Assembly: GCF_037042905.1 (NCBI RefSeq)
Contig: NC_087251.1
Span: 48,858,001-48,922,000, forward strand
Source: Lytechinus pictus
Taxonomy: Eukaryota
Direction of reading: 5' to 3'
Length of the DNA stretch: 64,000 nt
Position numbers and translations under genes: made by a program. Below, one piece after another: positions 6,365-62,700 of the stretch; within the stretch, counting starts at the first letter, position 1, and every line of letters starts with the position of its first letter. The notes under the pieces were generated by a model. That model saw nothing but the letters and a program-made list of their open reading frames with translations. It searched no databases and was not told the DNA's origin.

Positions 6365-6741
6365 AGGTATTGTTTAACTTTGTGAGCAGCCGATTTAAAA
6401 GATTCTCAAACCAAGATGAAACATGTGTACAAGTGCATGTATTAGAACTAATAAACCCTGAAAACAACCATTATTGAGAATGAAAAGCTAAAACTACAAG
6501 GCAAACCCCGATTTTGTAAATAGGCATCTTGTAGACGCCTAAATAGTACACATAAGTGTATGGGATGAAATTAAGATGGTGTTTTTGGTCACTTTATATT
6601 TCAATTTTTGAAGCACTAAATAATTATTTTCGAACGCAATTTTTTCTGGGCTTCATTTTTGTAACATATCACAGACACAGGTGACAAATGTGACCTTCTA
6701 GCTCAGATTTTTTTAAGTCAAACCAATGTTAACCAATCACT
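6365..6741. mobile_element. TTAA-flanked MITE with imperfect TIRs (Kolobok-like)
   Basis: TTAA at 6361-6364 and 6742-6745; AGGTATTGTTTAAC vs GTTAACCAATCACT. Confidence 0.6.
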
Positions 6742-30600: not shown

Positions 30601-33600
30601 GCCAGAGGATACTCCCATATTCAAGGTGGGGTCTTATTAGGGTTTTGAAGAGCAGAGGCAGAGTTGTCCTTGTGAGTTGAGTGAATGTCCTTTTCATTAT
30701 GGCGAGGAGTTGGTATCCTTTGCTAACTGCTGATGACACATGCTGGTGAAATTTCAGCTGACAGTCCACTATTACACCGAGATCCTTTTCGGCTTCCACT
30801 ACTTGCAAGTCTTTCCCATGCATATGGTAGCTTTTTCCAAGGTTTCTCCTGCCGATGTGCAACACTTTACATTTGTCATCATTGAAGGGTAATTGCCATC
30901 TCTCAGACCACTCAATAAGGTAATTCAGGTCGTCTTGAAGACCACTCGTCTGTGAAGGTGTATTTCCAGTACTATAGAGTTTCGTGTCATCAGCAAATAA
31001 TACCACTCTGCTATTTATTACGTCAGATGGGAGGTCATTTATGTAGATCAAGAAGAGGACTGGTCCGAGGACACTTCCTTGCGGAATTCCGCTTGTAACA
31101 GGTGACCAGTCGGATGATTCTCCATTAACAAAGACTCTTTGTACTCTTCCGATCAAAAATGCTCTAATCCAGTTCAGGAGTTTACCTTCTATACCATGTG
31201 CCTTTAGCTTGAGTAAGAGCCTTTGATGGGGAACGCTATCGAATGCCTTCCGAAAATCAAGGTATAGGACATCGATTGTTTCACCTTCATCTAATAACCT
31301 TGACCATTCCTCAAGAACATAAAGAAGTTGAGTGGCACACGTCCTTCCTGGGGTAAATCCATGCTGACTCTGTGTGAGTAGGTCATTTCTTAGCAAGTGC
31401 GTAACTATAACATCTCGAAGAATTTTCTCCATCAACTTTCCTGCAACGGACGTAAGGCTAACAGGCCTATAATTTGAGGCTTGGGTTCTACTCCCTTTCT
31501 TATGGATTGGTACTACAGTTCCCTGCTTCCAGTCCGATGGGAGTTTACCTTCCTGCATAGACTTGTTACAGATTAATGTCAATGGTTTAGCAATGGACTC
31601 AGCTAGCTCATATAATACTTTAGGATGCAACCCATCTGGTCCTGGTGACTTATTTGTATTCAAGTTTTTTAACTTTTTGCTGACATCTATCTCTTGTACT
31701 TTTACTTCACTTAGCGTGGGTAGGTCACTTCGCAAAGGAACTTGTATATCCGGTATACTGTCCATGTCCTCTCTAGTGAATACTTCGGAGAAATAATCGT
31801 TAAGAACACTTGCTATTTCACTATCTGATTCAGTAAGTTGTCCATTACCCTTCATGAGGCTTGTAATACGACCTTTACTCTTTACCTTGCTGTTAGCATA
31901 ACGCCAAAAAGCTTTGGGATTATGGCCAATGTTTTCAACTAGGTCGAGTTCAAAGTTGTTACTTGCTGCTCTTGTTTCTTTCCTTAATTGGTTCCTCACT
32001 CGTTTATACTGTCTGTAGTCGATTTCTCTCTCGTCTCTGGTCCTGTTCACATCTGAATATCGTTTCCAGTAACGCGTCTTCTTCTTAGACAACTTAAGTA
32101 TAGCTTTTGATACATAAATATTTCGTCTCTTATCCGTGTTACACTTGCGTACTGGTACATAATTTTCCACACCTTCTTTTATATTGTGAAACAATGAGGT
32201 CCAAGCTTGTTCACAAGTTTTGCCAGTAAAATCCTTATCCCAGTCAATTTTTTCAAGAGTCTCATTCATGGAATTGTAGTCCCCTTTCTGGAGGTTTGGG
32301 CGACTTTCTCTTTCTGGCAATTTGTCTTTTTCCTGAAGTATGTCAAGCTTGGTCAGTATACACACATGATCACTAAGTCCAAGTGGAGGTAAATAATCAA
32401 TTGAAGATATTAGGTCATCAGCTGTACATGTAAATGCAAGATCCAGAACGTTTGGATTTTGGCCATGTCTATATCGTGTAGGCTCATATATATGCTGGTG
32501 CAGGAATGCTTCCTGGGTGGCAGTGAGAAACATGTACGATGTATTATTGGAGGTCGAATTTACATGCGATCTTTTCCAGTTGATGTCCGGAAAGTTGAAA
32601 TCTCCCATTATCAAAAGATGCTTCTCTCTGTTTTCACTGGCCAACTCTATGAGTTCACAAAGTAACTTAGACTCGGGTTTAACCTAGGTTTAGTTATCAG
32701 AATACCACCTTATATGTAGACCATGAAAAACATATGAAATTTTTGCCAGCATAAATCCCGCAAACCTGTATTGCATTCTGAAATCCAGTTTAACTTGGCC
32801 TTGGTCCAACTTAAAATCCAATGTCATGGCTTAGGATGGCCTATTGATTCTCTGGGCCCCTCCTAATTGGCCTTGAATAATTGGTGCACACTTTTTCAAT
32901 TTTCCTATTTATGCAATACAAATATATGCCCCATTGAAAAGTGGTTTGCCTTGAAAATCTCAAGATTTAAGGCCAAACTGAAGGGAAGCTGCATATGCGA
33001 AAATTGTATTTACATTAAATCATACATGATGTTTACATTGCTCTTTGTCCATGCTTTCATCGTGGGGAAAATTGTTTTAATAGTTATGAATGATTAAGGT
33101 GTCAAATGAGCTGATAAATTGAACCTGTACAGTTGTGATTTGTGTTTCGGTTGGCATTCCAGAGTTATAACACAACTTCAAACCAGTTCACAACTGATGA
33201 AGCACCAATATATTATATAAATTAGTTGTAACACTACATTTTGTACAGTGAAACTACATGAGATATCAATAGTACACGCATGTACATACACTTACTCACA
33301 AGTCTAAATTCACGTTCCTTACATCTCTCGATATTGTCACTTCAGCATTGCTCCACATTTGAGAGCCAAATTTTTAAAGAACATGGACCCAAGTTATATG
33401 CTTGGAAAGTATAATAAAACAACAAAGAAATAAATTTGAATATCTTGAAAATATAGCTTTATTCAGAATTCTTCACTCGCAGATTGTCTGTATTAATGAC
33501 TGCAAATCTAGTAGTATGCCTCTCTCTCACGGTGTACCGCAGGGTTCTGTGGGCGGGCCCACTTTGTTTTCGATTTACTTGATTAGTTTGGGACATATCT

Positions 33601-36600
33601 TACAACGCCACAACATCAATTATCATATCTATGTCGTTGACATCCATCTCTATCTCTCCTTCAAACCAAATCAGGCTGATGCAACAAATGCAATCGCCCT
33701 TCTTGAGAATTGTTAAGCTGACATTCACTCCTGGCTGGATAGTCATTCATTGAAATTTAATCCCTCCAAAACTGAGTTCCTTCTATTTGGTTCAAGGGCT
33801 CAACTTTGTAAGGTCAAGTTGTCATCCATATCTTTTTCGGAGTGTACCATTAATGTGTCCCAGACGTGTCGTAACTCTCTTCTTTCACTGCGCCCTGGGC
33901 ACTCTGCCAAGTGGATTTGGCGCATTACAAATCACATATATTATTATTATTATTATAGTTATTCTAACTTGCATGCTTACTGTATGCCCTCCAACTCGAT
34001 TTTAAAACAAGCAGGGCCTTCTGTTTTAGCAATTCACAAGAAAGAGTTGAAGTCCAAAATATCGCGCACCTTACGTACGGGACACTCAGAGATTTTCAAC
34101 CTCTGAAAAATATTTTAAAAAGCATTTGAATTTTTCTGTTATATAGTATGATTGATACCTATGAAAAGAATATTGTTTTAAAGTTTGATGACATTTGACC
34201 TTGGATTAATTATTTTATCAACAAAAAGTACCAACTTATGCATGGGACCACAAAAAATTAGATTAAAAAAAGTTCAAGTTAAAAATTATCTGCAAGTATT
34301 TTATTGATGAACTTGTGTTTAGCTGTGAAGAAATGTACAATACTGAACATCATTTCAGTAAGTTTTAATAATTTAATTCAAAAGGATATTAAACAAGGCA
34401 TTTTTGTTGATGTAAAATTTATTACAAAAAGTACACCTTACGTCCCAAATGAGCACCTATGCTCATGAATGTAATAATGAATATCTCCATAGCTTCATAT
34501 TCAGATCTACAAATTAAATTACACTTTGTAAGAAAAAAAAAACGGACTTATAAGTGGTCACTACCCAAGTTATGCAACCAAATTAAAGCTATTCTTTTTC
34601 ATTTATGAGAATTAATTAATAAAATAAAAGACTGATTAAATTTCAACACCTAGTTTTGTTTTTTCGGAAGTCAAAGTAAATTCATTATAGAGCTTCTTAA
34701 AATATGATTGGTCAATGTTTGATAAAAAAAAACATAAAAAACATACTAAAATCCTTATGTATGGGACACCTGGTTCACAGAAATTGCATAATTTGCATAA
34801 TTAATGAACTGATCCTGTCTTATCAATTGCAAATTAAACCAGACCATAGAGGGTCCATGTCCATAAAGGAACTAGATCAAAAATAAACTGATATTAGGTG
34901 AATATTTTTAGATCATCCCATACGTACGGTGCTATTTCAAATTATGCAAATGAGGGCATCCATTGTTGCATAAATTTGCATGATTTACAATATTGAATTA
35001 CTGGAAATAGATTATTTAACTCTTTAGCTACAATATTATAGCAATTGTTTTTGCATTTAGTCGAGATGATTTTTTTTTACATCTGAGGGGACATTACCTT
35101 GGACTTGCCCATATATTTTGGGAGCATTTTCTCAACTATCATGTATACAATTGGCAGTAATGATATATTATTTTGACAGCTCCTGTAACAAAATAGTATT
35201 TTTACCATTGCTTTGATTTGTAAGGAATATTGTTTCAAAACTATTCATTCTAAATCATCTCCAATATCTCTTCAGGGATCAAAATATAGACCAGCCTTAA
35301 AAATTTTCCTTGAGTGTGAATAATGGGAGACATAACATTTGTTCCTGCAACAATTGCCCTGGGCTTTCTTTTGTCTAAAATGTAGGGTAAGGGTTGCAAT
35401 ATGGTTTAATATTAGGTTTAGGGTTAGGTTAAAGGAAGGGTATGTTAAACCAAGGGTTGAAGTTGGTCATTTGATTACTGTGTGGAATTTATAGTGGAGC
35501 AAATGTTGCCAGAGCAAATGTCATGGAACCAAATAATCTCATAATAATCTTACCTGAGAGGTAAAGAATGGAGTCGTCAATATCATCACTTGTATCTTCA
35601 TTAGGGGAAGTTCTAGCCATTGGAGAGTACTGTTTTCTGTATCTCATGCCCAATCCCTTTCCTTCTACTTTCAAAGGAGTTGGCTTCTGTAAACATAAGA
35701 AATTACTATGAAAGGATACTATGATCACCCCCTTAATCAGTCAAAATACAGAAAACAATTAAATATAAAGAATTTTTTTTTAAATTAATACATACTGGAT
35801 ATTAGCAAGGATTTTCCTTTTTTTAATACTTTCCTGAACACTCTTACAATACATATTTTTCATTAATAGGAAGAACAAAAGTTAGCTCATGGAAAGGTAT
35901 GGGTTGGAAGAAACTATTGTGAAAGTGGTAAAGAGAAGGGCATCGAGATGGATGGGCCATGTGTTGAGGGGGGATGATGAACCTATGAAAAGAGCATGGG
36001 ATCTGGAAGTGAATGGCATAAATAAAAGGGAATAGAAGACCAAAGATTACATGAAAGGTATGATGAAGAAGAAAAACAGCAAGTTTGGTCTGAACAAGGA
36101 GGATGCCGAAGGCAAATTAGTAGAAGGAGGAATTGTCATCATGGCGCGGAAGTCAGATACCTTTTGTAATAGCAAAAAATTACTAATATAAAATATAAAT
36201 TAAACAAGTGGAGCGGCTCTGGCAGTCTCACCTGCATTACATGATTTAATATAGCAGCAGAGCTGACTTTGAAAACAACTATAAAATAATTATTCACAAA
36301 ACACCATTCATATGATACAATACTATGTTCATTGACCCTAAATGACATTTGACCTTGATTATGTGACCTAAGACTTGTCAGTGATACTGGATTACCCTTA
36401 TGTCCACAATTCATAAACTATATCCATAAACTTTGAAAGTTATGACAGCATTTTAATAATTACCTCCAACATGGCCAAAGTTCATTGACCTTAATGACCT
36501 TTTACCTTGGTCATGTGACCTCAAACTTGCACAGGATTTTCAGTGATATTTGATTACTCTTATATCCACAATTCATAAACTATATCCATAAACTTTGAAA

Positions 36601-39600
36601 GTTATGATAATTCAACAAATACCCCAACTTTGGCCAAAGTTCATTGACCTTAAATGACCTTTGACATTGGTCATGTGACCTGAAACTCGCACATGATGTT
36701 AAATGATACTTGATTATGCTTATGACCATGTTTTATGAATCAGATCCATAAACTTTTGAAGTTATGATGGTAATTCAACAAATACCCCCAACTTGGCCAA
36801 AGTTCGTTGATCCTAAATGACCTTTGACCCTGGTCATGTGACTTGAAACTCAAGTAGGATTCCCTGGGGGCCACTTACATTGATGAGTGGATACCATGCA
36901 CGACCAAAAAAACATGTAAAAATTATGTCTTTTTTAAGATAGGACATGTTACATACGTAACATAATAAGGGTGTAAAAAACACTAAAATAATGGGAAAAG
37001 GGTATTTATTTCACTAGGTAAGCTATGTGTTTAGGGTTAAATTTGTGAGGGTATAAAAAGTTAAGACTAAAATGTTTTATAAAGGATATTCGTTTAATCG
37101 TTTTGCAACAGTCAAAACTACGTGTTTAGAGTACGATATGCGCGAGGTGTGGCTGTACTAAACCCAATGATGTAGTAAAGGTAAAACCAACGACCGACGT
37201 CCGTGACATAAAACAATAAAAATATCGCTGTACTTGTATAGGGGTTCAATTCAGGAAATACTTGCCGAGAGTATCGTTTAGTTTCCAATACTTGTTAAGG
37301 GGTGCATTTTCAGAATATGGAAAATACTTGTTTAGGGTGCTTTTCGAGACCCCATGGTCGCGCATGGTATCCACTAGTCAATGGAAGTGCCCCCCCCCCC
37401 CCCCCCCCCCCCCCCGGAGTAGGATGTTCAGTAGTATTTTATTACCCTTATGGCCAAGTTTCATGAACTAGGTCCGTAAACTTTCTAAGTTATGACATTT
37501 CAAAAACTTAACTTTAGGTTTAGATTTCAATATTGACTCCCTCAACATGGTCTGAGTTTATTGACCCTAAATGACCTTTGACCTTGGTTGTGTGACCTGA
37601 AACTTAGGCAGGATGTTTAGTAATACATGATTAACCTTATATCCAAGTTTCATGAACCAGGTCCATACACTTTCTAAGTTATGCTGTCATTTCAAAAACT
37701 TAACCTTCGGTAAAGATTTGATGTTGACGCCGCCGCCGTTGGAAAAGCGGCGCCTATACTCACTGTGCTATGCAGGTGAGACAAAAATCTTGCCACAAAC
37801 TATCTGGCTAAGTTATTTGTGAGAAAAAAAATATGGCAATATGCTGATGACAGATTTTTTAGATTGCTGCATTGCTCTCTCAACTGAAAACAAATTCTTA
37901 CCCTTCGTGATGACTTTTGTGAGACAGGTTTTGGCAAAATATTCATCGTGACTCTGGAAAAAGACAAATCAAACCATAGACTTATTTGCATTACTTGTCA
38001 TTTAAAAAAGCATGACAAAACCCAACAAAAATAGAATATCTCATGTTAAAGTTCATTTATTTCTTTCTGCAATTACTAAAAGATACATAGTTTAGTTTAG
38101 TTTATTGTTCTTTATTAAAAAAATCACACCCGTCAAAACCGACGGCCGGCCTAAGAAGGTCTATGATTGATGACATCAAAATGTATAAAAGTCACATACA
38201 ATTACATGAAAAAGGAAATCATAAGGTATTCACAAAGTAAACTTAACATTTTGGGAATAAATAGCACAAAAAAACCCAAAAATGGTGAAGTAAGAAATAT
38301 TATTTTTTGAATATATTATTTTTTTACGAAGAGTGAGAATTTCATTTGCATATCTGGCTAATGAGCAGCAGAGTGTATCAGAAGACATAATAAAAATGAA
38401 TTGTTGGTAAGTGGTTAAATCATTGAACTCAGGGTAAATGTGTTTGATAGTATTGAGTAGTGGCAATCTGTAAATTTCATAGGCAGGACAAATCATAAAA
38501 CAATGGAACTCATCTTCAATATTATCCGAATTACAAATGATACAGAAGCGTCCTTCATAAGGTATATTTTGATAATGACCAGTTTCAATTGCAATAGGAG
38601 CACAACCACATCTAAACAATGCAAGTGCACTTCTATTTGATCTATTTTGGCATTGAATAGTATAGCTTGAAGTGGATGATTCCTTAAAGTTAAGATATAT
38701 GTGTTAAGTTTGTTTTTTGCATTTGCTTTTCTCCTTACATCATCAAAAATACACTTTTTCCATTTATCCTCAATATATACTTCACAGGCATCAGAAACTG
38801 ACTTTACAAAGTTGTCAGTACTTGCAACATGAGCCAAAGGTTCAATATGAGTACATTGTAACTTTACAAATATAAACTCTTTTACCTTATAACACCAGTT
38901 TTTAATTCCATTATTTGCCAGTAACTTGGACCAAACAAAGATTTTACTTGGATAGCGCACAGAATTGAGTTTACTTAACTTACTCCACAACCTTACAACA
39001 GATTGAGTTTGGTGATAAAAAGGGGGATCCCAACACATTTCACCCATAACAGCATTGTTAGGTGTGCATCTACCAACCCCCAATAAAACCTACTGGGGTG
39101 TACATGCTCTAATAAATACACTATTCTATTGATAGAAGAAAACTCCTCTATGCCCCGAAGACCGCTAGCATATTGCAGGATTGGTAATACCATAGAGTCA
39201 TACAATTTAGTATAAGCGAACCGCCCATAAGTTTAAACTTACTAATAATAATGACTAAAGCTCGAGAAGCTGATTGAGCCAGCATTTTAGTACCCTTTTG
39301 AAATATAAAGAATTTGTCAAACCAAAGACCAAGGTATTTGTATGAGTCAACAATATCAAGATTGTGACCACTAAGGTGAAAAGAAAATTTTGTCTGTTCC
39401 TGGCTCTTCTGTCGAAAATGTACAATTTGTGTTTTTGAAGAATTTGATTAAATTCTCCATTTAAGGGCCCATGCGCTAACTTTGTCTAGCATACACTGAA
39501 GATCATTTTCACTTTCAGCTATAAAAACCACAATATCATCTGCATACATAAGCATATCAATTTGTGTATCCAGTACCTGAATACCTCTATTACATAGCCT

Positions 39601-42600
39601 TAAACTGTCAACTAGGTCATTTATAAACACATTAAAGAGGAGCGGGGATAACAGGCAGCCTTGTTTAACACCAGACTCCACCTGAAAGAAATCTGTTAAG
39701 TTACCATTGACATTAACAGTGCACATAGTTTCCTGGTAAAGAGCTTTGATACTATTATACAATTTACCATGAACACCAATTGATCTTAATTTGTGCCATA
39801 GCATAGTCCGATTAACCCGGTCAAAAGCTTTTTTTGCATAAAAAAAACATACAAAAGTATTCTTTTTACAAAGCTTACGGTTTTCAATTATTGAATAAAG
39901 ACTGTATAAGTGATCAAGACAGCCTCTTTTCTTTATACAAAACCCATTCTGCTCTTCCTTAAGAATACATTCTTTTTCCAAGAAAGTTGTCAGCCTATCC
40001 CTCATAATATCACAGTAAATCTTACATATCGCTGACATCAAGGTAATACCTCTATAGCTTAGGGGTTCACGTTCATCCATACCAAGTTTCAGGATAGGAT
40101 GTATTATTCCTTTTTGCCAAGCTCTGGGCGAAATACCATACTCAAAACAAAAGGAAAACAGAGTATGCAAAAAATGTATCGTAGAACTATTTTTTATCGG
40201 TTCAGCAACCATACCATCAATTCCTGCAGCTTTATTTAGTTTTGCTCTCCTAACAGCTTTAGATACTTCTGAAAATTCAATATAGGCAGGTTCAGTTTAT
40301 CACCTCGCGAATCAATGATCTGAGACTTTGATTCAAGACTTGATAATTGTTTTCTAATATCAGACAGGAATTCATCGTCAAAACCAGTACCACTATCTTT
40401 AAAAAGAGTGGATAAGTCTTTTTTCCATTTATCCATAACACTATCAAAATCTTCAGTAATTTCTCCCTCTTCATTTACAATTTCCATAGGAATTTTTGGC
40501 ACTTCATGTTTTCTTCTGAACCTATTCTACCTATCTCCTTCCAGAATGTACCTGAATCCTTGTTAACCATAGCATCAAGTGCATTATTAACCTTTTTATA
40601 TTGAAATGACCTTCTGGTTTGTTTTACAGCTTTGTCAAAAATTTTGTGTGCAGATTTATATTCAATAAACTTATTGCTCTTGTACAAAGGCTGCTTACAA
40701 TTTATCCAGGCCTTTTGCTTACTTTTAACTTCCTTCCACAGACATTGCAAGTTCTCATTCCACCAAGCTTTAGGGGAGTGAGGGAGACCTTTTTCACGAT
40801 TACCAATATTCCTTTTTCTGCAATGTCTGTGGACAGAATTTCAAATAACTTTTTTCAAATTCACTGTAAACCTCATCTAGATGTTCTTGAGTGTGTCACA
40901 ATTCAATTTAGTAGCAAGGTCATTAAAGTGCATTTACACTTTGATCATCAGACATAAAAGTATCATTTATATCACTAGGATAGTACATTTTAGCTAAATT
41001 CTGAGACCTCAATTCAGTATGTTCAACATAATCAGATTTGTTAGACATATATTCAAGGTTAAGCTTACTTACATACCAACACAAAATTGAATGATCAGGG
41101 ATTGAACCTAATGCGGGGATAGAATATTTTATTTGCTAAGAACATCAGCTACTCACAGTACTTTGAAGTTAGAGTATTGGTTGAGATCATGGTAAAGTAC
41201 TAAACAGTAATCTACAACTTATTTTCCTTTGTAAGACACACAAGTATAATCATCATTTGAAAATCTAACATTTAAATAGCACACATTAGAAGTTACGCAA
41301 AAGTCCACAAAAGAATTGCCTTGCGAGTTTGTTTCAAAGTCTAGAGTTTTCTGAGGCCTGACCGAGTCTATACCTTCAATAAAATCTGGTGTCTCACCTA
41401 TTCTAGCATTAAAGTCTTTGCAAAGTTGAATTGAACCCATATCTTTGTAACTATAGACTCCTGATAGTAACTTATCAAAAAACTCTTCTGCATGGCCTCC
41501 TCTGCTTGAGTTTTCAGGCGGAAGATAGCAAACACAAATATAAAATAAATCGTGTTTTTGTTTATTTTTCAGATGAATCCACATTATACCATCATACAAT
41601 TTCTCCACACATTTCAAAGAATAATGTTGAAGAACACGCCGATGAATCAAAAATCCAACTCCACCAGAGCCTTTCCTTGCTTTTTTGTGTAGATGTAAAC
41701 GGTTATGGCCAATCCAGAAATAATCAGGAATTGAAATTGCTTGACTTTTAACAAGATGACTTTCCACTAAGCTATTAATATCAAAATCACACTTTACCAA
41801 GATGCTTTTCTTTAATGAACATGCTTCTGACCAACCACCAACATTCCAACATGCAATGCTAAGCTGATAATAGCCGTCGTTACCCTATACATGTGGGTCC
41901 TCAGGGGTCACTTTCCCATCTGCTGGGGGGGGGGGGGGTTCTGGGTTCCTATATTCTGCACCATCAATGAAGAGTTTGCCATTTCGAAACAAAGTTTTCT
42001 TGCCAGCTTTGTACGCTTCAGCTGCTATGGGCTTCAGCTGTTGTTTAGCCATGCAATCTGCAGGTGTCTCATCCTGTTTGATGTAAAAGGAGGTCTTTGC
42101 ATCAAGTTTCCGCTTGGATCGTAAGATCCGGTCTCTAACCTCAACTGTAGAGACCTTGAAGATGATAGGTCTTATAGCCCCTTCCTTCCTTTTACCTAGT
42201 CTGTGGGCAATCTCGACCTCTGAGTCAATACTGAGGAAGTCTTTCAAGACATTGATCACAATCACTGACGGGACCTCGTCTTTCTTCTCAGGGCCAAATT
42301 TACAAAGTAACAAGTTGCATCTCCGTGAGTATCGCTCAAGTTTATTGTTGACAGCTTGAAGGTGACCAATCTTGGCTACACAGGTAGACATGTCCTTGGA
42401 CAAAAAGTTTACTGTTTTTTCAAAATCAGTTGTTCTAGCAGACTCAAACTCAATTGAGCTTTCCAGCTCTGCTTGTTTGGACTTACGCTCATGAATGCAG
42501 GCTTTCATAGATTCCTGACCAGCTAGTATGGACTTCAACGACCGACCTACTAATTGTTCAAAGCCCGGTTCATCTACAACAAAGCTCGCTGACCGAGACT

Positions 42601-45600
42601 TCATCTTATCTTTGTTTGTCCCGGCGTTCCCGCTAGCACGGTCTCGCAGTTCCATTGTCTCTTCGCTTCACGCTAACTCAAAACACAGTTAATGGGACTA
42701 CAAATAAAAATACACGCGCGACGAATAGTTCAAACTATCAGACCAATTACTCACAAAATATGACACAGATCTGTCAAAAGTTTCCACACCGTTAGTCCAC
42801 CTGATCCTCAAAATTCTGGGCAACAGATATCACACTGCTTTCCGATAAAAGTGATATTTATGTCAAATTAAAAAACTAAAAAGACATCAATCGCACAGCT
42901 CGTAGTGACATGACACCACCATGAGACCATGACACATATGTGCACAAAATCAATAAAGTTGAAAACAACAAGAACAAGTGGAATGCCTCTGGCGGTCTCA
43001 TCTGCATCACGCGATTCAATATAGCAGCAGTGCTGACTTTGAAAACTACTATAAAATAATTATTCACAAACAACACCATTCATATAATAATACAATACTA
43101 CGTTCATCGACATTTGACCTTGATCATGTGACCTAAAACTTGTCAGTGATACTTGATTACCCCTATATCCACATTTTATACATTATATCTATAAACTTTG
43201 AAAGTTATGACAGCAATCTAATAATTACCACTAAAATGGCCAAAGTTCAATGACCTTAAATGACCTTTGACTTTGGTCATGTGACCTGAAACTCGCATGA
43301 GATGTTCAGTGATACTTGACGACTCTTATGTCCAAGTTTTATGAACTAGACCTATATACTTACAGAGTTATGATGGTAATTCAACAAATACCCCCAACAT
43401 GGCCAATGTCCATTGACCTTTGACCTTGGTCATGTGACCTGAAACTCGCACAAGATGTTCAGTGATACTTGGTTACTCTATGATGGTAATTCAACAAATA
43501 CCCCCAATTTGGCCAAAGTTCATTGACCCTAAATGACCTTTAACCTTAGTCACGTGATGTGAAACTCATGCAGGATGTTCAGTAATACTTGATTAACCTT
43601 ATGGCCAAGTTTCATGAACTAGGTCCAAATACTTTCTAAGTTATGCTGTCATTTCAAAAACTTAACCTTCGGTTAAGATTTGGTGTTGACGCCGCCGCTG
43701 CCGCCACCGTCGGAAAAGCGGCGCCTATAGTCTCACTCTGCTATGCAGGTGAGACAATAAAACTAAACAACAATGAGCTGAAAATATGCGAAAGAGGTCT
43801 GTATATTTATAGAAGCAAGATTTGTTAAGCCCGGTGTCCCTCAACACAAAGGTCAGCGATTAAACATACGCTTGATTTTCACAATTAATTGTACATTGTA
43901 GTCAATGCAATCGATTGTGACCATATGTTATACGATGATTGCTAAGCTTTGTGTGACAGGCCCCAGATCACCTTCAAAACAGCAGCAAAATATGTACCTG
44001 TATAATTATGTGTTATATAATCAGAAATTAAACATCTGTATGGGCTCTCAACTGCATGTTATTTAACATTATGCCTATTGCCCTGCTGATCAAGAAAAAA
44101 TTTATACACTTAACTTCTGAAATTTTAAAATAATGACCTCTGTGAGCTTTGGCATTTGCCCGTATGTCCCCCAAATATAATCAGAGGATCATTATAAGCA
44201 TATTCACATGAGTGAAGTTAAAATTTGATCCCTCAAATGGCTCTTCAATTCTCGCTACCCCAAATAGCGATTTCGCCGAGATCCGGGAAAATCCCTGTAA
44301 CGTGCATTGCATTATGGGATAGCTTTTTCGGTATTACAACTTCCTGTTCGGAAGTCCAACGCACTGCATTTGCCATTTAGATCAACAGTGCCGTCATGCA
44401 CAACAACACAACGTAGCTTTCGCTCGGAAAGTTCGTGATCACAACCCTCTCTTTCACTAACAGTTTTACAGCCTTTTCTGCTAAAGTCACTAATTCTGCC
44501 TGACGCTTTCCATTGCATGGTATTCATCTGTCAGTTAAGATTTTTTTAAGTTCCGAAACTGATTTTTATCCATTTTGTGGTCGACGAAAAATTGAACGAA
44601 ATGAATGCTGAATATATTTAGTGTCTAGTTGAATACGATCATGATGTCAGGCCGGTCGCTAAATGCAAAATTTTAAGATATTCATTATTTGTTTGATTTT
44701 TTTATAACCAAATAAAAGCATGAATAAAAATTATTCTCACGTGAAATATATTTTTTATTTTTATTTATAATTCAAATGGAATCAAAACTGACCAAATGCA
44801 ATAAAAGGTATTATACTCTGTACATATTACGCTGATTGGCATCGATTTCAGCGTGGTGGAAAACTCAGTATCGCGAACCTCGCGCGAGCATGACTCTAAA
44901 CCGGAAGTGGTGATGACGACCCGACGGAGTGAAAATTATCTCGTCTCGCGCATTATGAGATTTTTGTTCCTATTTGGGGTAGCGAGAATTATCAAAAGAA
45001 CAATATACTTCAATGTACATAACGGCCTTTTATCTTAATATCCCAAAACTAATCAGATCATCCCATCTTTCATGTGAAACAAGTGTTAAAGGAGAATGAA
45101 ACTCTTGGAGCAAGTTAGCTTTTGTGAAAGCAGAAAAATCAAAGAATAAGATCAACAAAACTTTGAGTAAAATAGGACTAGCAATAAAAGAGTTATGAGC
45201 ATTTGAATGTCGAGATCACTAATGCTATGGAGATCCTCCCATTGGCAATGCGACCAAGATCTGTGATGTCACACACGTACAACTCTCCCATTCGGACACT
45301 GAAAATATACCCCAAAACATCTCTTTTTGCTCATTCTAATCATATGACAAACGATTCATCAATGATATAATGTTGTGAAACCTCTGTACTTGTCATCTCA
45401 TAAAGAAAACACCTAACCTTGTGATAGACTCTATAAACGGTGAGAATATAAGTGAAATAAGTACTAAAGTAATGAGGGAGTTGTACGTGTGTGATATCAC
45501 AGATCTTGGTCGCATTGCCGATGGGAGGATCTACATGGCACTAGTGATCTCAATATTCAAATGCTCATAACTTTCTTATTATTCATTCAATCTTCCTCAA

Positions 45601-53620: not shown

Positions 53621-54088
53621 ATGGCCTTAAGTGGCCGTTTCCATCGATCAAAATAAGTTTAAATATGTGTAAATGTTGCGAGCGCGAATCTCTAGCTCAA
53701 ACTTTTGGAAATTTCATGTAACGTTAGACATGAAAATTAAACATTCCGAGCAGATTTTGTAATCATGAAAGAAATGTGTCTCTAACTAAAGAATAAACGC
53801 AAGCGCGAAGCGCAAGCTGAAATGTTGATATGCTGACCAAAAAAGGAACCTTTTCAGGACTGCATTTAAGGGGCTTTCACAATCGCTCTTGCGATCGTTT
53901 GGGATCATTTGGTCGCAATATATGTTGCACACAATCGCAACGGTTGTAAGCAGTCGCACCACCAATTGTGAAAGGGGCTTTAGTGACTCATGATATCACT
54001 ACCTTTATATTGTTTCTCTGGCAATCACTTGACTTGCTACGAATATGATCTACCAATTCTACCGCGATATCTCAAATATCGATACTAG

Positions 54089-54364
54089 TGTAGTAGCGAC
54101 TGCCCTGGGGGCCTGGGTTCGGGGGTTTCCGGATGACATCGGAAGGGTTCGGCGGGGTTTCCCGACCTGTGACCCGGGGTCGCGGGTCGTTCTCCGCTCG
54201 GTCTCCGTTCAACCATCACACATGTGTTCAGAGCTCGAGAGATAAACATTGCTTTTACCAAACCTTCTGGAAAGTGCTGTTTTGGGACGGAATTCAACCA
54301 AGCCGGGCTGACTAGGTTCAGGTGAGTCGAGTATTTATCTTAACTTAGGTCCCGCGCGGCTTCA
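54089..54364 (+). repeat. 5' LTR
   Basis: TGTAGTAGCG...GCGGCTTCA; direct repeat of 59505-59780. Confidence 0.95.
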
Positions 54365-54935
54365 TTGGCGTCACGGACCGGACCTGTGACAAATTTGGGC
54401 CAACCCTAGCTAAAGAAAAGTAATTTGGTCGGGTCAAATCGGTAGGCCGGGAACAGGTAGCAGTGGGATTTCTGCGACCGAGGGCACCCGGGCTGTATTT
54501 TTCCCTTCCGTTTTCCCTTTCTTTTCTCGGTTTTCCTTGACTGTCACTGTCTGTTCTCTTTTCATTTGTATTCTCTATTCTCTTTTCGACGGATTTCCTA
54601 CTGTCTTCTTCTTGTGCCTTTGTTCGGTTGCCTTTTATTATCAATTTTACCCGAGGTTGCTTGTTGTTGTGCAGTGATTCGGGTTGATCGATCGCGCGGT
54701 GAGTGTGCACCGCGAGTGGTGACCCCGTTTACACTACCGCTTAGTTGTAGGCGGTGGGGGTTCGGGGTTTCCTGGCAGCCTTGTGCACCGATTTGTGTAG
54801 CACCCGTTATATTCGAATTGCTTTTCTGCGATAGTGCTTTGATTTATTGATTTATCGTTTCGATTATTGTGTTGATTGTTTGTTGCATTGTGTTGCGTGT
54901 GGACCCACCCACTCGGTGTAGTGGGGAGTCCGTTA

Positions 54936-54966
<31 letters not shown>

Positions 54967-55877
54967 ACAACAATTTTTTATTGAGAGAGTGTGGAGTGAT
55001 TGTGATTATTTGTTGGGTGCGTTTAGATTCAATTGTATTATTGTATTGTAACCGGTGACCTGATCGGTTAAATACAGCCTGTCGTAGAGGCTGTCAAGTG
55101 CAGGTACCTGGGCTGTGGATTTATCCTGAACTTGATGTAGTCTGACAATTCAGACTCTTGTGTACTGGTTACACCGGTGTTAATATTGCAAGGGTTTGAT
55201 TTTTGTGATATTTGTTAGATTTACAGTCAATTGGTAGGGTTATTGTTAATTAAGAGTTAGTTTATATAAATCAGACCCTATTGATGTAATTCAGAGATAG
55301 TCTGTATATCGGACTTTGGCTTTTAATAAAAAATATATTTGATCAGTTTTAGCAGTTCTATAATTTAGACTGACAGTGTTGTTACATCAACATTTAAGCT
55401 AGTCTTTACATCAGACCCTTGGTTGATCAAAATTAACAAGAGGGTTTATTACCCTAGTGGATATAATTTTTGGTTACCAATACAGAGTTTATTTTTTAGA
55501 AGGATAGTTATTACCAGGTACCTTGCACTCAATCAGATCAACGCCAACTATTGACTCGCGAACGTTCGGCCGGGCAACCGTTATTAAAATTATCTTCCGT
55601 GTCGTGTAGGCTTGGCGCACCGTTAGCTGCGATACAACCAAATATTATTAAAGACTTTTTGGAAACAACTAAAATAAAATATTATTAAAGGCTTTTGGAT
55701 AACTTTGGGTATAAAACAATAGTTAAGTATTACTGGATATATCAATATATATATCTATACAGGAATATAGTGGCCACACATATATATATATATATACTCA
55801 GCGGCAATTGTAGCTGTGTATAATTAAATTGCTACCCTTCTCTTTTAAGGGTAATTAGTCTTGGCTTATTTCAGTAC

Positions 55878-56024
55878 ATGGATGAGAATAATTCCGATCA
55901 GTTTGTTATTGAAATTAGGGGGAGGCTACGTCTTCTGCGATTTCTTTTATTAGCATACCGTGCGGGAGCAATTACAAGGGCGGAATTAATTCAAGTATTG
56001 GTGGATTTATTCTTTCCGCAATAG
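55878..56024 (+). CDS. 48-aa upstream ORF of the LTR element
   Basis: ATG..TAG encoding MDENNSDQFVIEIRGRLRLLRFLLLAYRAGAITRAELIQVLVDLFFPQ; starts 4 nt after an acceptor-like TTATTTCAG; below the ORF-track cutoff. Confidence 0.45.
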   Translation: MDENNSDQFVIEIRGRLRLLRFLLLAYRAGAITRAELIQVLVDLFFPQ

Positions 56025-56071
56025 GAATTACTGATTATTAATATATAAGCATAATCAGATTATTTGATGAA

Positions 56072-57691
56072 ATGGCGGAGTCAGGCCGACTCCCTATTAA
56101 TTCATGTTCCATGTTGGAGCTCGCGGCTGTGCCCGGCATGACTGCCGCGGGCCTTGCGGTCATCGCCGAGGCCAGGTCACACTATGGGACCATTACACCC
56201 GACCTGTTTGCGTCGGCCCCATTTCTTGGGGATATTCCGGTGGAGAGTTTCGATTTCGCACCTCCATCCGTATCCACCGCATCATCGAGCGGTGCCACGC
56301 CAGCGCGTCCCGTGGATAGTTCGGCAGCATTCCACTCTATGCCGGAGCTGCGTCCGATGGGGGCGAGCACACCCCGCGGCAACCAAATTCCGGATCCATA
56401 TCGGTTTGACTTCTATCCGCCTCCGGAATCCCACGGGAGCAATGGGAGGGCGAATGCCTCCGGCACAAACGGAACTAATCCGCGTGCCAATGCCACACCA
56501 GGCCCTCGCCCGAGAAGGGATAATCCCTTCCCTGGGGACGGTTCCGGTCATACACCGGATCCCCAGATGCCTCATGCAAATGCTGGGTTAGACCCACATT
56601 CGGCAAGAGATGCTTCACACCAGGCAAACCCTAGGGTATCTCTGCCCTATAGGGATATCCGAACTGTGCCCCACAGTGCACCGGTGAGTGGGTTTAGACC
56701 CCCGGTGGCCTATGCCATGGGCCGCCCTCGCACCGGTCTGTCTTTCCAAGGACTCCCCAAAGGTCTCTCATTTGATGGGAAGTCTCAATGGGATCCGTTC
56801 TTTCGGAAGTTTTCACTTCTCGCTGCTGACAGAGAGTGGGATGGCCAGGAAAGCTTGGCCCAGCTGTGTTGGTGTTTGGAGGGCAAGGCCCTTGCCTACT
56901 ATGACCGTATAGCAGCTCAGAATCCGGGAATGGATTACACTGTCGCCGTCAGAAAGATGGCTGCCCGATTCAACTTCTCGGAGCTTCCTGAGTCCTCTCA
57001 GTTAGAATTCATGGCCGCCAAGCAGGGGGCCGATGAGTCATTGGAAGAGTGGGCGGACCGCCTTCTGGAACTTGCAGCTAGGGCATTTCCAGGCAGTCCT
57101 GAATCCTTCCTCCAGCAACAGCTTGTATTGCGCATGTGCCAAGGAGCATATGATCGCAATGCAGGGTTCCAGGCCCTGAATCACCGTCCGAAGTCGGTGG
57201 AATCCGCGGCGGATGCTATCCGGTGGGCACAGCATTCCCACACCGCGGTTTTTGGTCGCTCAAAACCTGCAAAGGTTTCCTTAGCCGAAGTTGGGGATCA
57301 CTGGGAATGGGCTGCGAATCAGATTCAAACTACGCCTACCCAGCAGCGGAGCACCGCTGGATCTAAGTCAAGTCACCCACGCCCAATCGGCCCGGGCGAG
57401 GTGATGAAGCGAATGTTTGATTTTGAAGACTGCCTTGATTCCATGTCTAAGAATGTGGCTAGGTTATGCGAAGCTGTAGAGGCTTTGAAAGCACGTCCTT
57501 CCTCTGAACCCGGGGCATGTTTCAAGTGTGGATCCACCGGACATTACCTCAGAAATTGTCCAAAGCGCAGCTCCGGAAACACCAAGCCCTCAGTCTCCCT
57601 CATAGAGCTTGAGGAGGGAAACGAGGAGGGGTCGGGACTGATGGCCGAGTCTCGATCCAGGAGCCATTTGGCCGAATTGATTCCAGAATAG
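56072..57691 (+). CDS. gag: Gag (N-terminal HhH-like motif, capsid, CCHC zinc knuckle)
   Basis: FDGKSQWDPFFRKF..W..LEGKALAYY, MHR-like KQGADESLEEWADRLLELA, CFKCGSTGHYLRNC; 539 aa intact. Confidence 0.9.
   Translation: MAESGRLPINSCSMLELAAVPGMTAAGLAVIAEARSHYGTITPDLFASAPFLGDIPVESFDFAPPSVSTASSSGATPARPVDSSAAFHSMPELRPMGASTPRGNQIPDPYRFDFYPPPESHGSNGRANASGTNGTNPRANATPGPRPRRDNPFPGDGSGHTPDPQMPHANAGLDPHSARDASHQANPRVSLPYRDIRTVPHSAPVSGFRPPVAYAMGRPRTGLSFQGLPKGLSFDGKSQWDPFFRKFSLLAADREWDGQESLAQLCWCLEGKALAYYDRIAAQNPGMDYTVAVRKMAARFNFSELPESSQLEFMAAKQGADESLEEWADRLLELAARAFPGSPESFLQQQLVLRMCQGAYDRNAGFQALNHRPKSVESAADAIRWAQHSHTAVFGRSKPAKVSLAEVGDHWEWAANQIQTTPTQQRSTAGSKSSHPRPIGPGEVMKRMFDFEDCLDSMSKNVARLCEAVEALKARPSSEPGACFKCGSTGHYLRNCPKRSSGNTKPSVSLIELEEGNEEGSGLMAESRSRSHLAELIPE
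57616..57674 (+). other. -1 programmed ribosomal frameshift signal
   Basis: In-frame slippery heptamer G_GGA_AAC at 57616-57622, 6-nt spacer, 11-bp stem GGGUCGGGACU/AGUCUCGAUCC (57629-57658); the loop is complementary to downstream GCCAU or GGCCG. Confidence 0.8.
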
Positions 57692-58542
57692 ATTCACCAG
57701 TGCTGGCACGCGATCCTCTTGATACAAGTGCTGATGCTGAGTTATCATTGTGGTGCTTGTGTCCTGGCAATCATGGAGGACAGACGCCTGCTGGCGATCA
57801 TCTAGATCTGGAAACAGATATGAGAGATCTCAAAGACCTTGAGACAGATCTTGGGGATCTCATAGATCTCCATACAGATCTGAACGATCTCATAGATCTC
57901 AATACGGATCTTGGGGATCTCATAGATCTCCATACAGATCTGAACGATCTCATAGATCTCAATACAGATCTTGGTGATCTCATAGATCTCTCAACAGTTC
58001 GTGAATCAGTTACACCGGATACTCTGAATCAGAGTATACAACCCGGTGAATCTTCAGAGATTCTGTCTGAGAATGAACTGGAGGTGGACGCAGTTGTCTG
58101 CCGCCTTAATACCAGTTCCATGGCCTCTATACCTATGTCATCGGGAGGCCTATCCGAAGACTCCGGATATGAAGACTTGGAGGAGTTTCCTCTAAGCCTG
58201 CCCAAGACTGTAGGGCAAGAGCAGAGCTGTACGCTTAGCCCAGAAACTTCCGGGTCCGCTCCAACAACTCTGGATGCAATAGTTCCTCAGGAGGAGTGGT
58301 TTGCTAAGCGCCATGAAACAGTTTTGAAGCTGTTAAGTCTTGATGATTCTTTCATACAGCTAAAATCCTGTAAGCCAGGATCAGCCCATACTGGTGTCAC
58401 CAATATGTACTCGTCCTGCTGCATCACAGCAGGAAACCATTTCCGGAGGGGACATCCAGTGGCATTGCCTGACACCCGGCAGAGGAGGCTATGGGATCCG
58501 GGAATTAACAGACTTCCTAAGAAATCCTTGGGAAACACCTGA
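57622..58542 (+). CDS. -1-frame extension of Gag (~306 aa, acidic, repeat-containing; not a recognisable Pol)
   Basis: The frame of ORF 57700-58542 is -1 relative to gag and is open back to the slippery site. Confidence 0.65.
   Translation, partial: RGGVGTDGRVSIQEPFGRIDSRIDSPVLARDPLDTSADAELSLWCLCPGNHGGQTPAGDHLDLETDMRDLKDLETDLGDLIDLHTDLNDLIDLNTDLGDLIDLHTDLNDLIDLNTDLGDLIDLSTVRESVTPDTLNQSIQPGESSEILSENELEVDAVVCRLNTSSMASIPMSSGGLSEDSGYEDLEEFPLSLPKTVGQEQSCTLSPETSGSAPTTLDAIVPQEEWFAKRHETVLKLLSLDDSFIQLKSCKPGSAHTGVTNMYSSCCITAGNHFRRGHPVALPDTRQRRLWDPGINRLPKKSLGNT
57796..57990 (+). repeat. 30-bp coding minisatellite with 60-bp higher-order period
   Basis: GATCTCATAGATCTCCATACAGATCTGAAC alternating with GATCTCATAGATCTCAATAC(A/G)GATCTTGG(G/T); encodes TDLGDLIDLH/TDLNDLIDLN. 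Confidence 0.95.
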
Positions 58543-59504
58543 CTCGAATCAGGGACCGCTTGGGAGATAGATTGTCTCCAAGGAACACCCGTGAATAGTT
58601 CGGGAATTCCGGAGCAATGCTATAAGACGTTGTGATCCGGTTATTGGGACCACCGCTTATCTACATGAAGGGTTTGGTTTTTAGATTTTCGCGGTGAATG
58701 TCTTAGTAAATTCTCCCTTTTCTGAAGGATTGTCTGGGTAGGTGTTAACTCCTCATCTACACAGTAGGAAGGAAGTTGATCCTACAGGCACGGGACACTA
58801 TATGAATCCCACCACATCGTGGGAGTGGTGGGCGTGAGTCCCTAGAGGGGGATTCAATTGCATTGCATAATATCGCAGTGCATACCCTGAATGTTATCCC
58901 AGGGTTACCGGAACGATTCGGTTTTAGTGAATCCCAGGAAGATGGGAGTACTCAGAATACTGGATGAGTGTCTCTTATTGGAGATTGACTCCCCATACTT
59001 GCCGGTTCATGGCCTCCAGGGGCCAGACTCCCCATTGTATATTGGGGGGTCCTGCAGACAGAGCATATACTTTGTCACAACCGGGACGCCTTTCGGCTGT
59101 ATTTCCCGGGAGCCTGGCAATAGGCCGGGTTGTATCCAGGGTGCTTCCCCCAGTGATATAACTACTGGTGTGAGTGTTCCCTGGGTTTTTCCTTCAGGAG
59201 GCTTGGCCTTCTGGAAGGTTTGTAATCATTCTTTAGGCCACTTTGTTTAGAGTATTGGGAGATTGTTTGCGGCCTCCAAATTTAATGTTTTAAGTGGCCG
59301 GGTTATATTTGTTTTTGGCTAACCCATGTTTTAGGGGGTGGGTTTAAAAAAAAAAAAAAAAACATTATTGGACTCTCGGTGGAAATTTTTCGGGAACCAT
59401 TGTGGGTCAGTCGCTACTTTTTTCCACATTGGGTGGCAGAATTTTGTCCCCATTTTTATTTATTTTTTGGAAATGCGGCCAAAATTTTTTAAAACGGGGG
59501 AGCC

Positions 59505-59780
59505 TGTAGTAGCGACTGCCCTGGGGGCCTGGGTTCGGGGGTTTCCGGATGACATCGGAAGGGTTCGGCGGGGTTTCCCGACCTGTGACCCGGGGTCGCG
59601 GGTCGTTCTCCGCTCGGTCTCCGTTCAACCATCACACATGTGTTCAGAGCTCGAGAGATAAACATTGCTTTTACCAAACCTTCTGGAAAGTGCTGTTTTG
59701 GGACGGAATTCAACCAAGCCGGGCTGACTAGGTTCAGGTGAGTCGAGTATTTATCTTAACTTAGGTCCCGCGCGGCTTCA
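59505..59780 (+). repeat. 3' LTR
   Basis: Direct repeat of 54089-54364, followed by the CTAG TSD. Confidence 0.95.
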
Positions 59781-62700
59781 CTAGCTCAATTGATCGATCA
59801 TCTGTGTTCTCAATCGTGTCTGCACTTTTTACCGTACCTTACCGGTACGTACCGTACGTACCGGTATTTATTTTTGTCCGACTCCGAGACCGAGGAGATT
59901 TTAGACTTCTTTCTGATTCATGGTATTCTAGTTTTCTACACTTGGTACGTCATTTGAATATAATTGAGCTAGGTAGCATGAGCCTTTGTTTAACTTTTTA
60001 ATTTCTATATATTCAGTTTAATCATACTTTGAGTTGTTTGTTGTCTGTTTGTTAGTTCTTAATTTCTAGCGCTACCCCGAGCGCTGCATGGGGCTACTAG
60101 GGTACGGGTACATGGTACACGTTGGAGCCGACCCTGGCCGCCCACATGGTTGGCGGGTGCTTGATGGGTGCCCAGGTCAGGCCAGGAAGCAAGAGTATGC
60201 GCTATCTACGGAAGATCGAGAACAACTAACTTTAACGTTAGACCTTTATTTTAATTAGCATTTGACAACCATTCCAGTCTGTGTGAATTTATGTTGGTTA
60301 ACCCGAAAACAGTAGAAATAATGATATGTTCTCAAGGTTAGATCTAACGTTTGTAGGCCTAAAAATCTCCAGAACAGACCATTCATTCAATCTACCTTTT
60401 CTTGATAACATTGTCATGACATTGTCATTAGGCTAGCAAAGTACCAAGTCATACCGGTAGGTCCCCTAACTTCCTATCCTAGGACCTAGGTCTGCGTAAC
60501 GTTAATTCTAACTTCTACAGTAGTCATAGTAGGCCTACGACCAGGCAAAAAGCAATGAATAGGGCCTACCGGTAGATCTTTTTTTGTAAAAAAAAATCGT
60601 TTTTTTTTAATCTGATGGTCAAGAATCTCACCGTGAATTAGACAGAGTCAGAGATTACAAAAAAGTGCAACTTAGAACCCTAACCAACGAAAGTAAGCTA
60701 TAAAAAATTAGATCTAGGTCTATTCTTACATGACTGATGATAATTGATAGGCCCTGTTACCTGACTATGACCTCTATGTAGATTCTACTATATGTAGTCT
60801 AGATCTCTATAGTATTTAGGGTCTAGACTAACATTAACTTTAGGGCCTAGGCCCTAGATCTAGATTCTGACAATAAAGCCTTAATATTTACTTATTCAAA
60901 AGATGACAAATGGCCATAAAATTCAAATTTATTGAAAAATTTAAAGAATATAGGCTAGTATTAAGGCCTACGGCTACGGTAGATGTAATGATTGCTTTGA
61001 TCGATTTAACATGGTTTTACCTAGACGATTGTCATTATGTTTGTTTTGCTTAGTTGTTGTTTTTTAAGTTTTTGCTATTTCGTTTAATGAGTTGTAAAGG
61101 AGGTAGATCTAAATTATTCTTAACTTTGCAAGGAGCAGGTTAGAGCGTGATAGTACAAATTTATAAGCTTGGCTAGATCTGCGTTATGAACTATTTTCAA
61201 ATTTTGTTTTATACTGACACAGGCTATAGGAATACCTGTGACATTGAAACCTTTCATTTCATGGAGTTATCTCACAAAACCACACACAAAAATGGAATCT
61301 CCTGAAAGAGAAATGGAAGTGCTGGTTCAATTGCTGATTTGTTGGTTATTCTTCTGAGACTTTGCTCCACTAACCAGGCCTGCCACTAACCTCAGTACAG
61401 TGGTAATAGGGGATGGGGGTGGGCATCCAATAGATCCAAGACCAAGACAAAAAAACGGAAAAAGAAAACAGGAAATGGCTCAAATGGATCAGACGTATGG
61501 TAATTTTCTGAATATTTTGAAAAATCTGTCACAAAATTATATTTTCATTTTAGAAAGGTCAATGTCAAATAAAATAAAATAAAATATTTTTGATCGCTTC
61601 ACTTGCTCGGGACTTTTAAAGAAATTATGTCACAGACGCCCTTTTCCCCTCAAGTTTGTTGGCACTTTACGCCACTGCTCTGTATCACTTTTGATAATTA
61701 TTTCCCAGAACAGACAGTCATCTCTTTCTATACGGTAATATGTTGCCCATACTGTCATTACTTTTATTTACGTTCAATGAATTTCAATTATTGAAAATGG
61801 AATAGTTAGGTTGGTGCTGGATGATCTATCTATGTTTGACACCTTGATACTTTCATCTGTTCTGTACCTTGTTCCTCATGTTTGTTTGTTTTTTCTCCAT
61901 AGGGGATGTCATGACTAGTATGTCACAATCCCCCTTTCAGCTTGTTCCATGCTCTCCATGTATCAGAAGTGATCTCACTAATAAACACTCGCCAGCAGTA
62001 CCTTCTACACCAAATATAACCAATCGAAACCTAGCCGAAAGTCCGCAGATAGATATAACATGTAAGATGAAGAATATTTTAGGAAATCTTCTATATAGAT
62101 AAAAGTCGCCATTGATCATGATAGGAGGGGAAGAGTGTGGTTTTTTTTTGGGGGGGATGTAACATTATATAAGTGCTACTGACATTTTAATTCTAACTTT
62201 TACCATAATAATATAATCGTTTAAATGGAAAATATAGTTGAAAACAAGAAATTTTAGATGTGGTTGCTGGCTTATATCGGTTGTAATGTATCCTTTAACT
62301 TATTCAATATGAATGAACATTTTGTAACAAAATGAAAAAAAATTATAAATCAGCGTGGAAATCATAGAATCATGTACACTGAATTAAGAAAATAATGCAT
62401 TCAAATTAATTGTCAATAAACACAACACACGTTTGTGTGCTATAAATTGGGTACCGGTATTTGTCACTTTTCTAAATGACGAAAATCATATGAAGGAAAA
62501 TCAATTGCATTTATTCTCTTTTCAGAAGGAAGATAATTAGGATTTATTTTTTTCCTGAATTACATCGTATTACAATTATTTTTTATTAACATATTTAAGG
62601 TATAATTTGAAACATATTCATTGTTTTTCGTTGTTTTGATGTATAGCTCGTGGCGTACCAGGTACACCCATTCCGCCAACGAATCGTGCACAACAATCGA

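Follow-up and report, generated by a model that had tools for sequence, protein, structure and literature searches.

What does a retrotransposon devoid of polymerase genes keep in the place of Pol, and why is the translational route into that place kept along with it? The question is raised by a long terminal repeat (LTR) element on the plus strand, at positions 54089–59780 of a 64,000-nucleotide stretch of Lytechinus pictus DNA (contig NC_087251.1 of assembly GCF_037042905.1; hereafter the window, with positions counted from its first letter). This copy is a non-autonomous, Ty3/Gypsy-derived element, whose 5' and 3' LTRs, with TG...CA ends, are 100% identical over 276 nt. Behind its gag, a −1 frameshift would lead into a second open frame, ORF2. 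Residues 1 to ~170 of ORF2 are the Pol spacer, cut at the first protease strand and joined to a tail of ~130 aa; the spacer is read as such because the Pol start lies in the same slot in the autonomous relatives and in L004, a truncated fragment where a spacer and EVVVCRL.TSSM are followed by the protease, i.e., by the true start of Pol. The best overall explanation, which we consider reasonably probable, is a helper-dependent Gypsy derivative which swaps cassettes between lineages and makes a Gag–ORF2 fusion.

The structure is shared, as the initial annotation (made from the sequence of the window) had proposed to check. A genome search with the whole element returned a single sister at 97% and several relatives at 75–80%. 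DNA of the ORF2 tail was found only at 13 loci of the assembly, in 14 matches since an insertion splits one copy, each time within a gag-bearing element. Three subfamilies can be distinguished among them: A comprises the window copy and the C9 copy, B nine loci and C two. Their gags differ, the identity to A being 57% for B and about 51% for C, and so do their LTRs. About 12 of the 13 represent independent insertions, since the two loci on C18 are probably one duplicated insertion: these copies (G000:C18:7.203-7.234 M; L008, L009, L045), 21 kb apart, have a common 5' LTR and 3' flank, probably as a result of partial duplication. A one-off deletion of a full-length element was therefore rejected as the origin of the window copy.

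The LTR pairs are identical in four copies (C7, C9, C26 and C2:36.8M) and 85.8–99.6% identical in seven others; of the remaining two loci, one gave no 5' LTR and the other has its LTR in common with its duplicate. Target duplications of 4 bp were found in every copy measured. Both gag and ORF2 are open in all four copies with identical LTRs; across the 13 loci, the frame of ORF2 is uninterrupted from the slippery site onward in six and that of gag in five, the breaks (single stops, frameshifts, insertions) being situated in older copies. A further sample, X5, has contigs that span gag and ORF2 with zero differences. The family is, very probably, mobile and dependent on helpers, and the initial proposal of a satellite-like parasite of an autonomous Gypsy element, equipped with a capsid of its own, gains support from the 13-locus family and from the constraint on ORF2 described below.

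The layout of the window copy is as follows.

54085–54088 (no strand): target-site duplication CTAG, left copy, a direct repeat flanking the LTRs
54089–54364 (+): 5' LTR, 276 nt, defined by identity with the 3' LTR
54366–54381 (+): primer-binding site (PBS), tRNA-Ser(CGA), complementary at 14/16 nt
54365–56071 (+): non-coding leader, 1.7 kb
56072–57691 (+): gag, 539 aa, ATG at 56072, with capsid core and CCHC knuckle; nearest relative L004
57616–57622 (+): −1 slippery heptamer GGGAAAC, register G GGA AAC
57629–57668 (+): predicted H-type pseudoknot, 6 nt 3' of the heptamer, its score reached by 0/100 shuffles
57613–58542 (+): ORF2, −1 frame, 309 open codons, 306 of them past the shift
57803–57990 (+): 30-nt tandem repeat coding five DLIDLx motifs; a single such motif in the protease-bearing L004
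58093–58122 (+): VVCRLxxSSM, the last Pol-derived stretch, equal to the protease start; crossover point in subfamily C
58123–58542 (+): non-Pol tail, ~130 aa, known only from this family and one database protein (P0001)
58543–58733 (+): non-coding end of the cassette, common to subfamilies B and C
58703–59157 (+): TatD-like ORF3 inherited from the autonomous parent lineage, now a decayed remnant
59491–59504 (+): polypurine tract (PPT), directly 5' of the 3' LTR
59505–59780 (+): 3' LTR
59781–59784 (no strand): target-site duplication CTAG, right copy

Most of this outline had been recognized at the outset: identical LTRs, a target-site duplication, a PBS, a PPT and an intact gag without reverse transcriptase (RT) or integrase (IN) were all confirmed, with 276-nt LTRs, CTAG, a tRNA-Ser PBS and no Pol domain. 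The PBS at 54366 pairs with the 3' end of the host tRNA-Ser(CGA) at 12 of its first 13 nt. Assignment to Ty3/Gypsy derivatives follows from the LTRs, PBS, PPT and short target duplication, and from a gag homologous to that of elements carrying protease (PR), RT, RNase H (RH) and IN; e.g., the gag shows 46% identity over 567 aa with that of L034, whose Pol has the order PR-RT-RH-IN. Pfam places a zinc knuckle at residues 482–498 of Gag. The copy is not autonomous, as neither Pfam nor tblastn gave a protease, RT, RNase H or integrase match beyond VCRL..SSM. Its 3' region matches L026 (nhmmer E 8e-79), and the decayed TatD ORF3 at 58703–59157 had been missed initially.

Signals for −1 frameshifting consist of an X XXY YYZ heptamer in register, a spacer of 5–9 nt and a pseudoknot downstream. 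By its sequence, the window copy fits this consensus, and the register and lengths initially given for the frameshift cassette (a frame of ~306 codons, a 539-aa Gag and a fusion of ~823 aa) held: the predicted Gag–ORF2 fusion comprises 517 + 306 codons, i.e., 823 aa. The GGGAAAC heptamer is retained in 13/13 family copies. A single hairpin 3' of it is ordinary (z −1.6; 15/200 shuffles fold equally well); the two-stem score of the H-type pseudoknot in the window copy, on the other hand, exceeds that of 100/100 dinucleotide shuffles. The pseudoknot surpasses all 100 shuffles in four of the seven relatives tested, and in L039 the score is reached by 4/100 shuffles; with this crude scoring it is not significant in subfamily C or in L034. 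The support thus covers subfamilies A and B and two Pol-bearing relatives.

The tail, together with its surroundings, seems to have travelled. Subfamily C is 95–99% identical to the autonomous L034 across gag and the spacer up to VCRL, beyond which it shows 91–98% identity with the tail of subfamily B, returning to 94–97% identity with the autonomous element in the 3' untranslated region (UTR) and LTR. Subfamily C is a double recombinant, in which the autonomous pol and the TatD-like ORF3 were replaced by the tail. The window copy is a second mosaic, combining an L004-like gag (81–94% nucleotide identity in most bins, 66–79% near the gag end), a B-like ORF2 (77–93% from the repeats onward) and an L026-like 3' end. 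The A–B distance accordingly differs between genes, with 2.14 substitutions per codon in gag vs. 0.68 in ORF2. The two copies of subfamily A (window 54089–54364 vs. L002/L003) also point to recombination, having LTRs that are 89% identical but a near-identical gag and ORF2, with three differences over ~2.6 kb. Template switching between co-packaged RNAs is an established route to such recombinants (PMC13570524). Movement of the cassette between lineages by recombination is, in our judgment, highly likely; the mosaics of A and C are observed, and recombination would be the mechanism behind them.

The element derives from a clade whose autonomous members are represented by L031 and L034. They are organized as gag, a −1 frameshift, PR-RT-RNaseH-IN-PHD and an ORF3 ending in a TatD-like DNase; in L034/L035 (G000:C2:68.168-68.184 M, minus strand), Pol ends in a PHD finger and the TatD match has a Pfam E of 3e-33. 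With the family they have in common the gag family, the frameshift signal, the spacer, the VCRL motif and the 3' UTR, and they differ from it in encoding a full Pol and ORF3. The TatD-like ORF3 has 90 genomic matches, many of them open and adjoining Pol frames, and a relative in Strongylocentrotus (P0145); the named relatives of the Pol and ORF3 of the clade come from sea urchins and other marine invertebrates. Marine Gypsy clades have been surveyed (PMC6238403), PHD not being mentioned in the part of that survey available.

An autonomous partner sharing LTR and PBS, which the initial annotation had proposed to look for, was found for subfamily C: L034 is a young copy, with identical LTRs and a Pol frame of 1415 aa. 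For subfamilies A and B, no intact autonomous element with either LTR was found in the assembly among the best-scoring candidates. A pattern search with the PBS gave 18 sites, eight of them in family copies and none tied to a known Pol locus. Elements of the L031 type were rejected as helpers, as their LTR ends and PBS differ. In L031 itself, gag and pol form a single 2165-aa frame (397–6891), sister entries having separate frames of 730 and 1450 aa, and its Gag begins with a helix-hairpin-helix motif. A second pol-less family is represented by L039 (G000:C3:55.207-55.213 M), with a 578-aa gag, a frameshift signal, an intact protease and no RT; about 15 entries are similar, L039 being the sole copy analysed in full, and further entries pair 785-aa gag frames with 216-aa protease frames.

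Is ORF2 then a product or a passenger? The ratio of nonsynonymous to synonymous substitution rates (dN/dS) was estimated with the GY94 codon model in six of the 13 copies, two near-identical copies and five frameshifted or interrupted ones having been dropped, and two being read with X at one stop. Over ORF2 as a whole, dN/dS is 0.61 (p 3e-4), and 0.51 (p 1e-4) when only subfamily B is considered; the corresponding values for the tail are 0.61 (p 0.013) and, in B, 0.39 (p 4e-4). Read in its two remaining sense frames, the tail yields 1.3 and 1.6, neither significantly below 1, and the antisense frame sharing third positions gives 0.68 (p 0.07); in a non-coding 3' control from the same B copies the values are 0.8, 1.4 and 0.95, none significantly below 1. 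Substitutions in the B tail are distributed over codon positions as 15/12/28, an excess at third positions (p 0.005). The frame of ORF2 is thus maintained, under a constraint that is weak and much below that on gag. Broken no more often than gag and with a dN/dS under 1, ORF2 agrees with the initial expectation that its frame would not be freely disrupted.

ORF2 could also be a neutral relic of one old deletion or capture, remaining open as its founders are few and recent, and hitchhiking on short pol-less RNAs, which replicate well. Disruption of ORF2 in seven of the 13 copies, the near absence of RNA and the retention of a frameshift signal in the pol-less gag-protease element L039, which makes such retention common in the clade, all speak for this. 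It is countered by four diverged variants of the tail (54–65% identity), all of them open, by significant likelihood-ratio tests with clean non-coding controls, and by neutral simulations, in which only 2% to 0.6% of 2000 runs kept an unbroken frame at 0.2–0.3 substitutions per site, so that neutral survival at the A–B distance is at most 2%. This alternative is already disfavoured and looks quite improbable.

A different alternative is that only the open frame matters, or ribosome run-through, or a cis-acting RNA signal (for packaging, dimerisation or stability), the residues themselves being nearly free. It agrees with A–B dN/dS values of 0.87–0.98 in the tail and non-repeat spacer, with the lack of a predicted fold (the AlphaFold model, built with five sequences, is uninformative at a mean pLDDT of 31.5), with the variable frame of the C-terminus and with the 190 nt past the ORF2 stop which travel with the cassette. 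Against it stand the third-position excess in the B tail and the dN/dS of 0.39 confined to the ORF2 frame, pointing to selection on residues. We hold it to be unlikely, less so than the neutral relic.

The reading of ORF2 as a useful protein has to be weighed against a number of observations. Besides the seven broken copies, constraint on ORF2 is weak beside that on gag (dN/dS 0.21; 0.06 in the capsid core, three copies). Selection is not uniform: the non-repeat spacer has a dN/dS of ~0.9, not significant, the value of 0.31 for the DLIDL repeat is possibly biased by unit shuffling, and the pair A vs. B_C26 is not significant (0.73, p 0.12, for the whole ORF2; 0.87, p 0.65, for the tail). All these estimates come from few copies, are affected by post-insertion drift and repeat shuffling, and were obtained with a single tree, an assumption which recombination violates. 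A crossover in homologous sequence gives in-frame junctions automatically, and these are therefore no proof of selection. Subfamily C spread with the tail and without the DLIDL repeats, which must thus be dispensable; the last ten codons of ORF2 vary in frame among copies, and that no autonomous partner was found for subfamily A among the best-scoring candidates counts here too. Finally, expression of the element is nil or very low in the RNA samples: in three rRNA-depleted runs, ~6% of each of which was read, mean depth is at most 1.2 in a few bins and zero over gag.

As to RNA at this site, a short high-copy repeat at 53868–53982, just left of the insertion, takes all RNA reads. L048 and L050 have tRNA-like heads not called as tRNA and are probably short interspersed elements.

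For ORF2, no Pfam match was obtained at E ≤ 1, and the sole Pol-like stretch is VVCRL..SSM. Of the faint echoes of Pol initially perceived, VVCRL proved to be the protease start of autonomous relatives, while KPGSAH, which recalls RNase H, was not significant. The description of the extension as acidic likewise holds for residues 61–127 (D+E 33%), to which strong acidity is confined, and not for the tail (12%). The DLIDL motif is present once in L004 and amplified to five or six copies in ORF2; motifs of this kind are rare in related Pol spacers (2/51 examined). ORF2 is probably a disordered tail acting via short motifs. The repeats resemble DLISLD of the Mason–Pfizer monkey virus (M-PMV) Gag, which recruits clathrin (PMC3128127); a clathrin-binding role is a lead only, and a rather improbable one.

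The source of the tail was not found in Pol, ORF3 or other host DNA. Captured host DNA was rejected, there being no further match in the assembly at E ≤ 1. An eroded RNase H was rejected too: motifs align by eye and hhalign picks the region, but the profile–profile E is 0.3, and hmmsearch with a 41-sequence Pol profile gave no match. When the tail was compared with two Pols and with three pieces of ORF3 (20 comparisons), no score stood consistently above those of shuffles, the lowest shuffle counts (2, 3 and 7 of 200) each coming from one variant only. The database protein P0001, the one match among 852 candidates, is a fourth open variant of the tail, 54–61% identical. A profile run against 1.84 billion representatives returned 24 matches, of which 23 align mainly with the region of the 10-aa repeats and are unrelated according to Pfam; the ESM Atlas gave no usable match, and no related loci were found in viral or metagenome contigs.

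Taken as a helper-dependent, fusion-making element, the window copy would operate as follows. Its RNA would share particles with the RNA of autonomous relatives and with their Gag-Pol, from which protease, RT and integrase would come; such packaging is inferred from the identical LTRs, the 4-bp target duplications and the recombinants. As reverse transcription proceeds in these mixed particles, the template would be switched twice, at a point in the spacer or close to the protease start and at another in the 3' UTR or ORF3, which would swap the helper's pol for the cassette and give rise to a new pol-less subfamily with the gag, LTR and primer site of the helper. The element would make its own Gag and, via the retained −1 frameshift, a minority Gag–ORF2 fusion, which may enter the particle in the place of Gag-Pol and confer a modest cis advantage on its own RNA. 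That the fusion is made and useful to the element seems somewhat probable; as a precedent, the fusion protein of mouse IAP 1-delta-1 has been reported to act in cis (PMC6466679). More tentatively, and doubtful as a whole, the cassette of ~0.7–0.9 kb might be a parasite of retrotransposons, which by double template switching replaces pol and ORF3 in successive autonomous Gypsy lineages and appropriates their frameshift signal along with gag, LTR and primer site. Its product would be an extension of Gag, made in low abundance and evolved for the purpose (possibly clathrin-recruiting via amplified DLIDL), so that the converted element out-competes its helper for Pol.

The fusion might instead, together with the knuckle-less Gag of subfamily B, poison or divert helper particles, from which either the parasite or the host would profit. 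Subfamily B Gag (L017, 849–2417) has lost its CCHC zinc knuckle, and two B copies still have identical LTRs. An interfering role would be in line with this loss beside a strongly conserved capsid core, and with the absence of an intact autonomous copy of the window lineage from the best-scoring candidates in the assembly. Continued jumping, attested by the four copies with identical LTRs, requires working helpers; moreover, fixation or special conservation is seen at none of the loci, and subfamily C has a young, intact partner. Interference is accordingly very improbable.

Gag-keeping non-autonomous LTR elements are already known in plants and animals. Plant TR-GAG elements (PMC8704663, PMC13570524) and wheat RLG_Quinta (PMC11302176) have LTRs, PBS, PPT and an intact gag, lack RT and integrase, are mobilised by an autonomous relative and show modular reshuffling by template switching. 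The window copy resembles TR-GAG in its intact gag, lack of RT and integrase and signs of mobility, and departs from the single-ORF state in its second, frameshift-linked, non-protease, constrained ORF; for TR-GAG and Quinta, these sources, as far as available, describe a single gag ORF and no retained frameshift into a second constrained ORF. Wheat has RLG_Sabrina and RLG_WHAM, Gypsy derivatives keeping Gag-protease, with variants whose coding slot is swapped for unrelated short ORFs (PMC9744471); there the new ORFs replace gag-pro, whereas in the present family it is pol that has been replaced, gag being intact and followed by the frameshift signal.

Among animals, zebrafish Bik-1/Bik-2 (BHIKHARI) are recently mobile, gag-only LTR elements, whose partner was not found in the reference genome; they are derived from endogenous retroviruses (ERVs), have a demonstrated host-essential role and, in the portion of the paper available, no second ORF (PMC12067270). 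In mouse IAP 1-delta-1, a non-autonomous, betaretrovirus-like ERV, internal deletion created a novel in-frame Gag-Pol fusion, which is reported to help retrotransposition in cis (PMC6466679). The family described here, in contrast, has a whole gag, needs a −1 frameshift, carries a tail not recognisably Pol and moves between lineages. The initial remark that no such arrangement was known from animals needs correcting for the keeping of gag, which Bik-1/2 and IAP 1-delta-1 share. In the literature searched (Repbase, subscription journals and supplements lying outside the search), neither a pol-replacing, non-Pol ORF passing between autonomous lineages behind a retained −1 frameshift nor a TatD in LTR retrotransposons was found.

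Other repeats are present in the window. Perfect 810-nt inverted arms at 17490–20676 overlap a 663-aa RT frame (18306–20294; Pfam RVT_1 E 5e-8), in an element we take to be Penelope-like. Endonuclease-RT frames of the long interspersed element type lie on the minus strand at 30185–32683 and 38233–42667, Pfam confirming the first, and a dispersed family with internal 163-nt tandem units has at least four copies (16129–17337, 24220–25095, 36172–37790 and 42942–43761).

Should ORF2 turn out to be no more than an open spacer, what remains is an animal TR-GAG whose recombination history is unusually clear. One genome shows how non-autonomous LTR families are renewed, with a pol-less middle handed between autonomous lineages and one donor–recipient pair still readable at 94–99% identity. 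It offers a natural test of why gag-keeping parasites keep coding capacity and of what the Gag-Pol slot does besides the delivery of enzymes.

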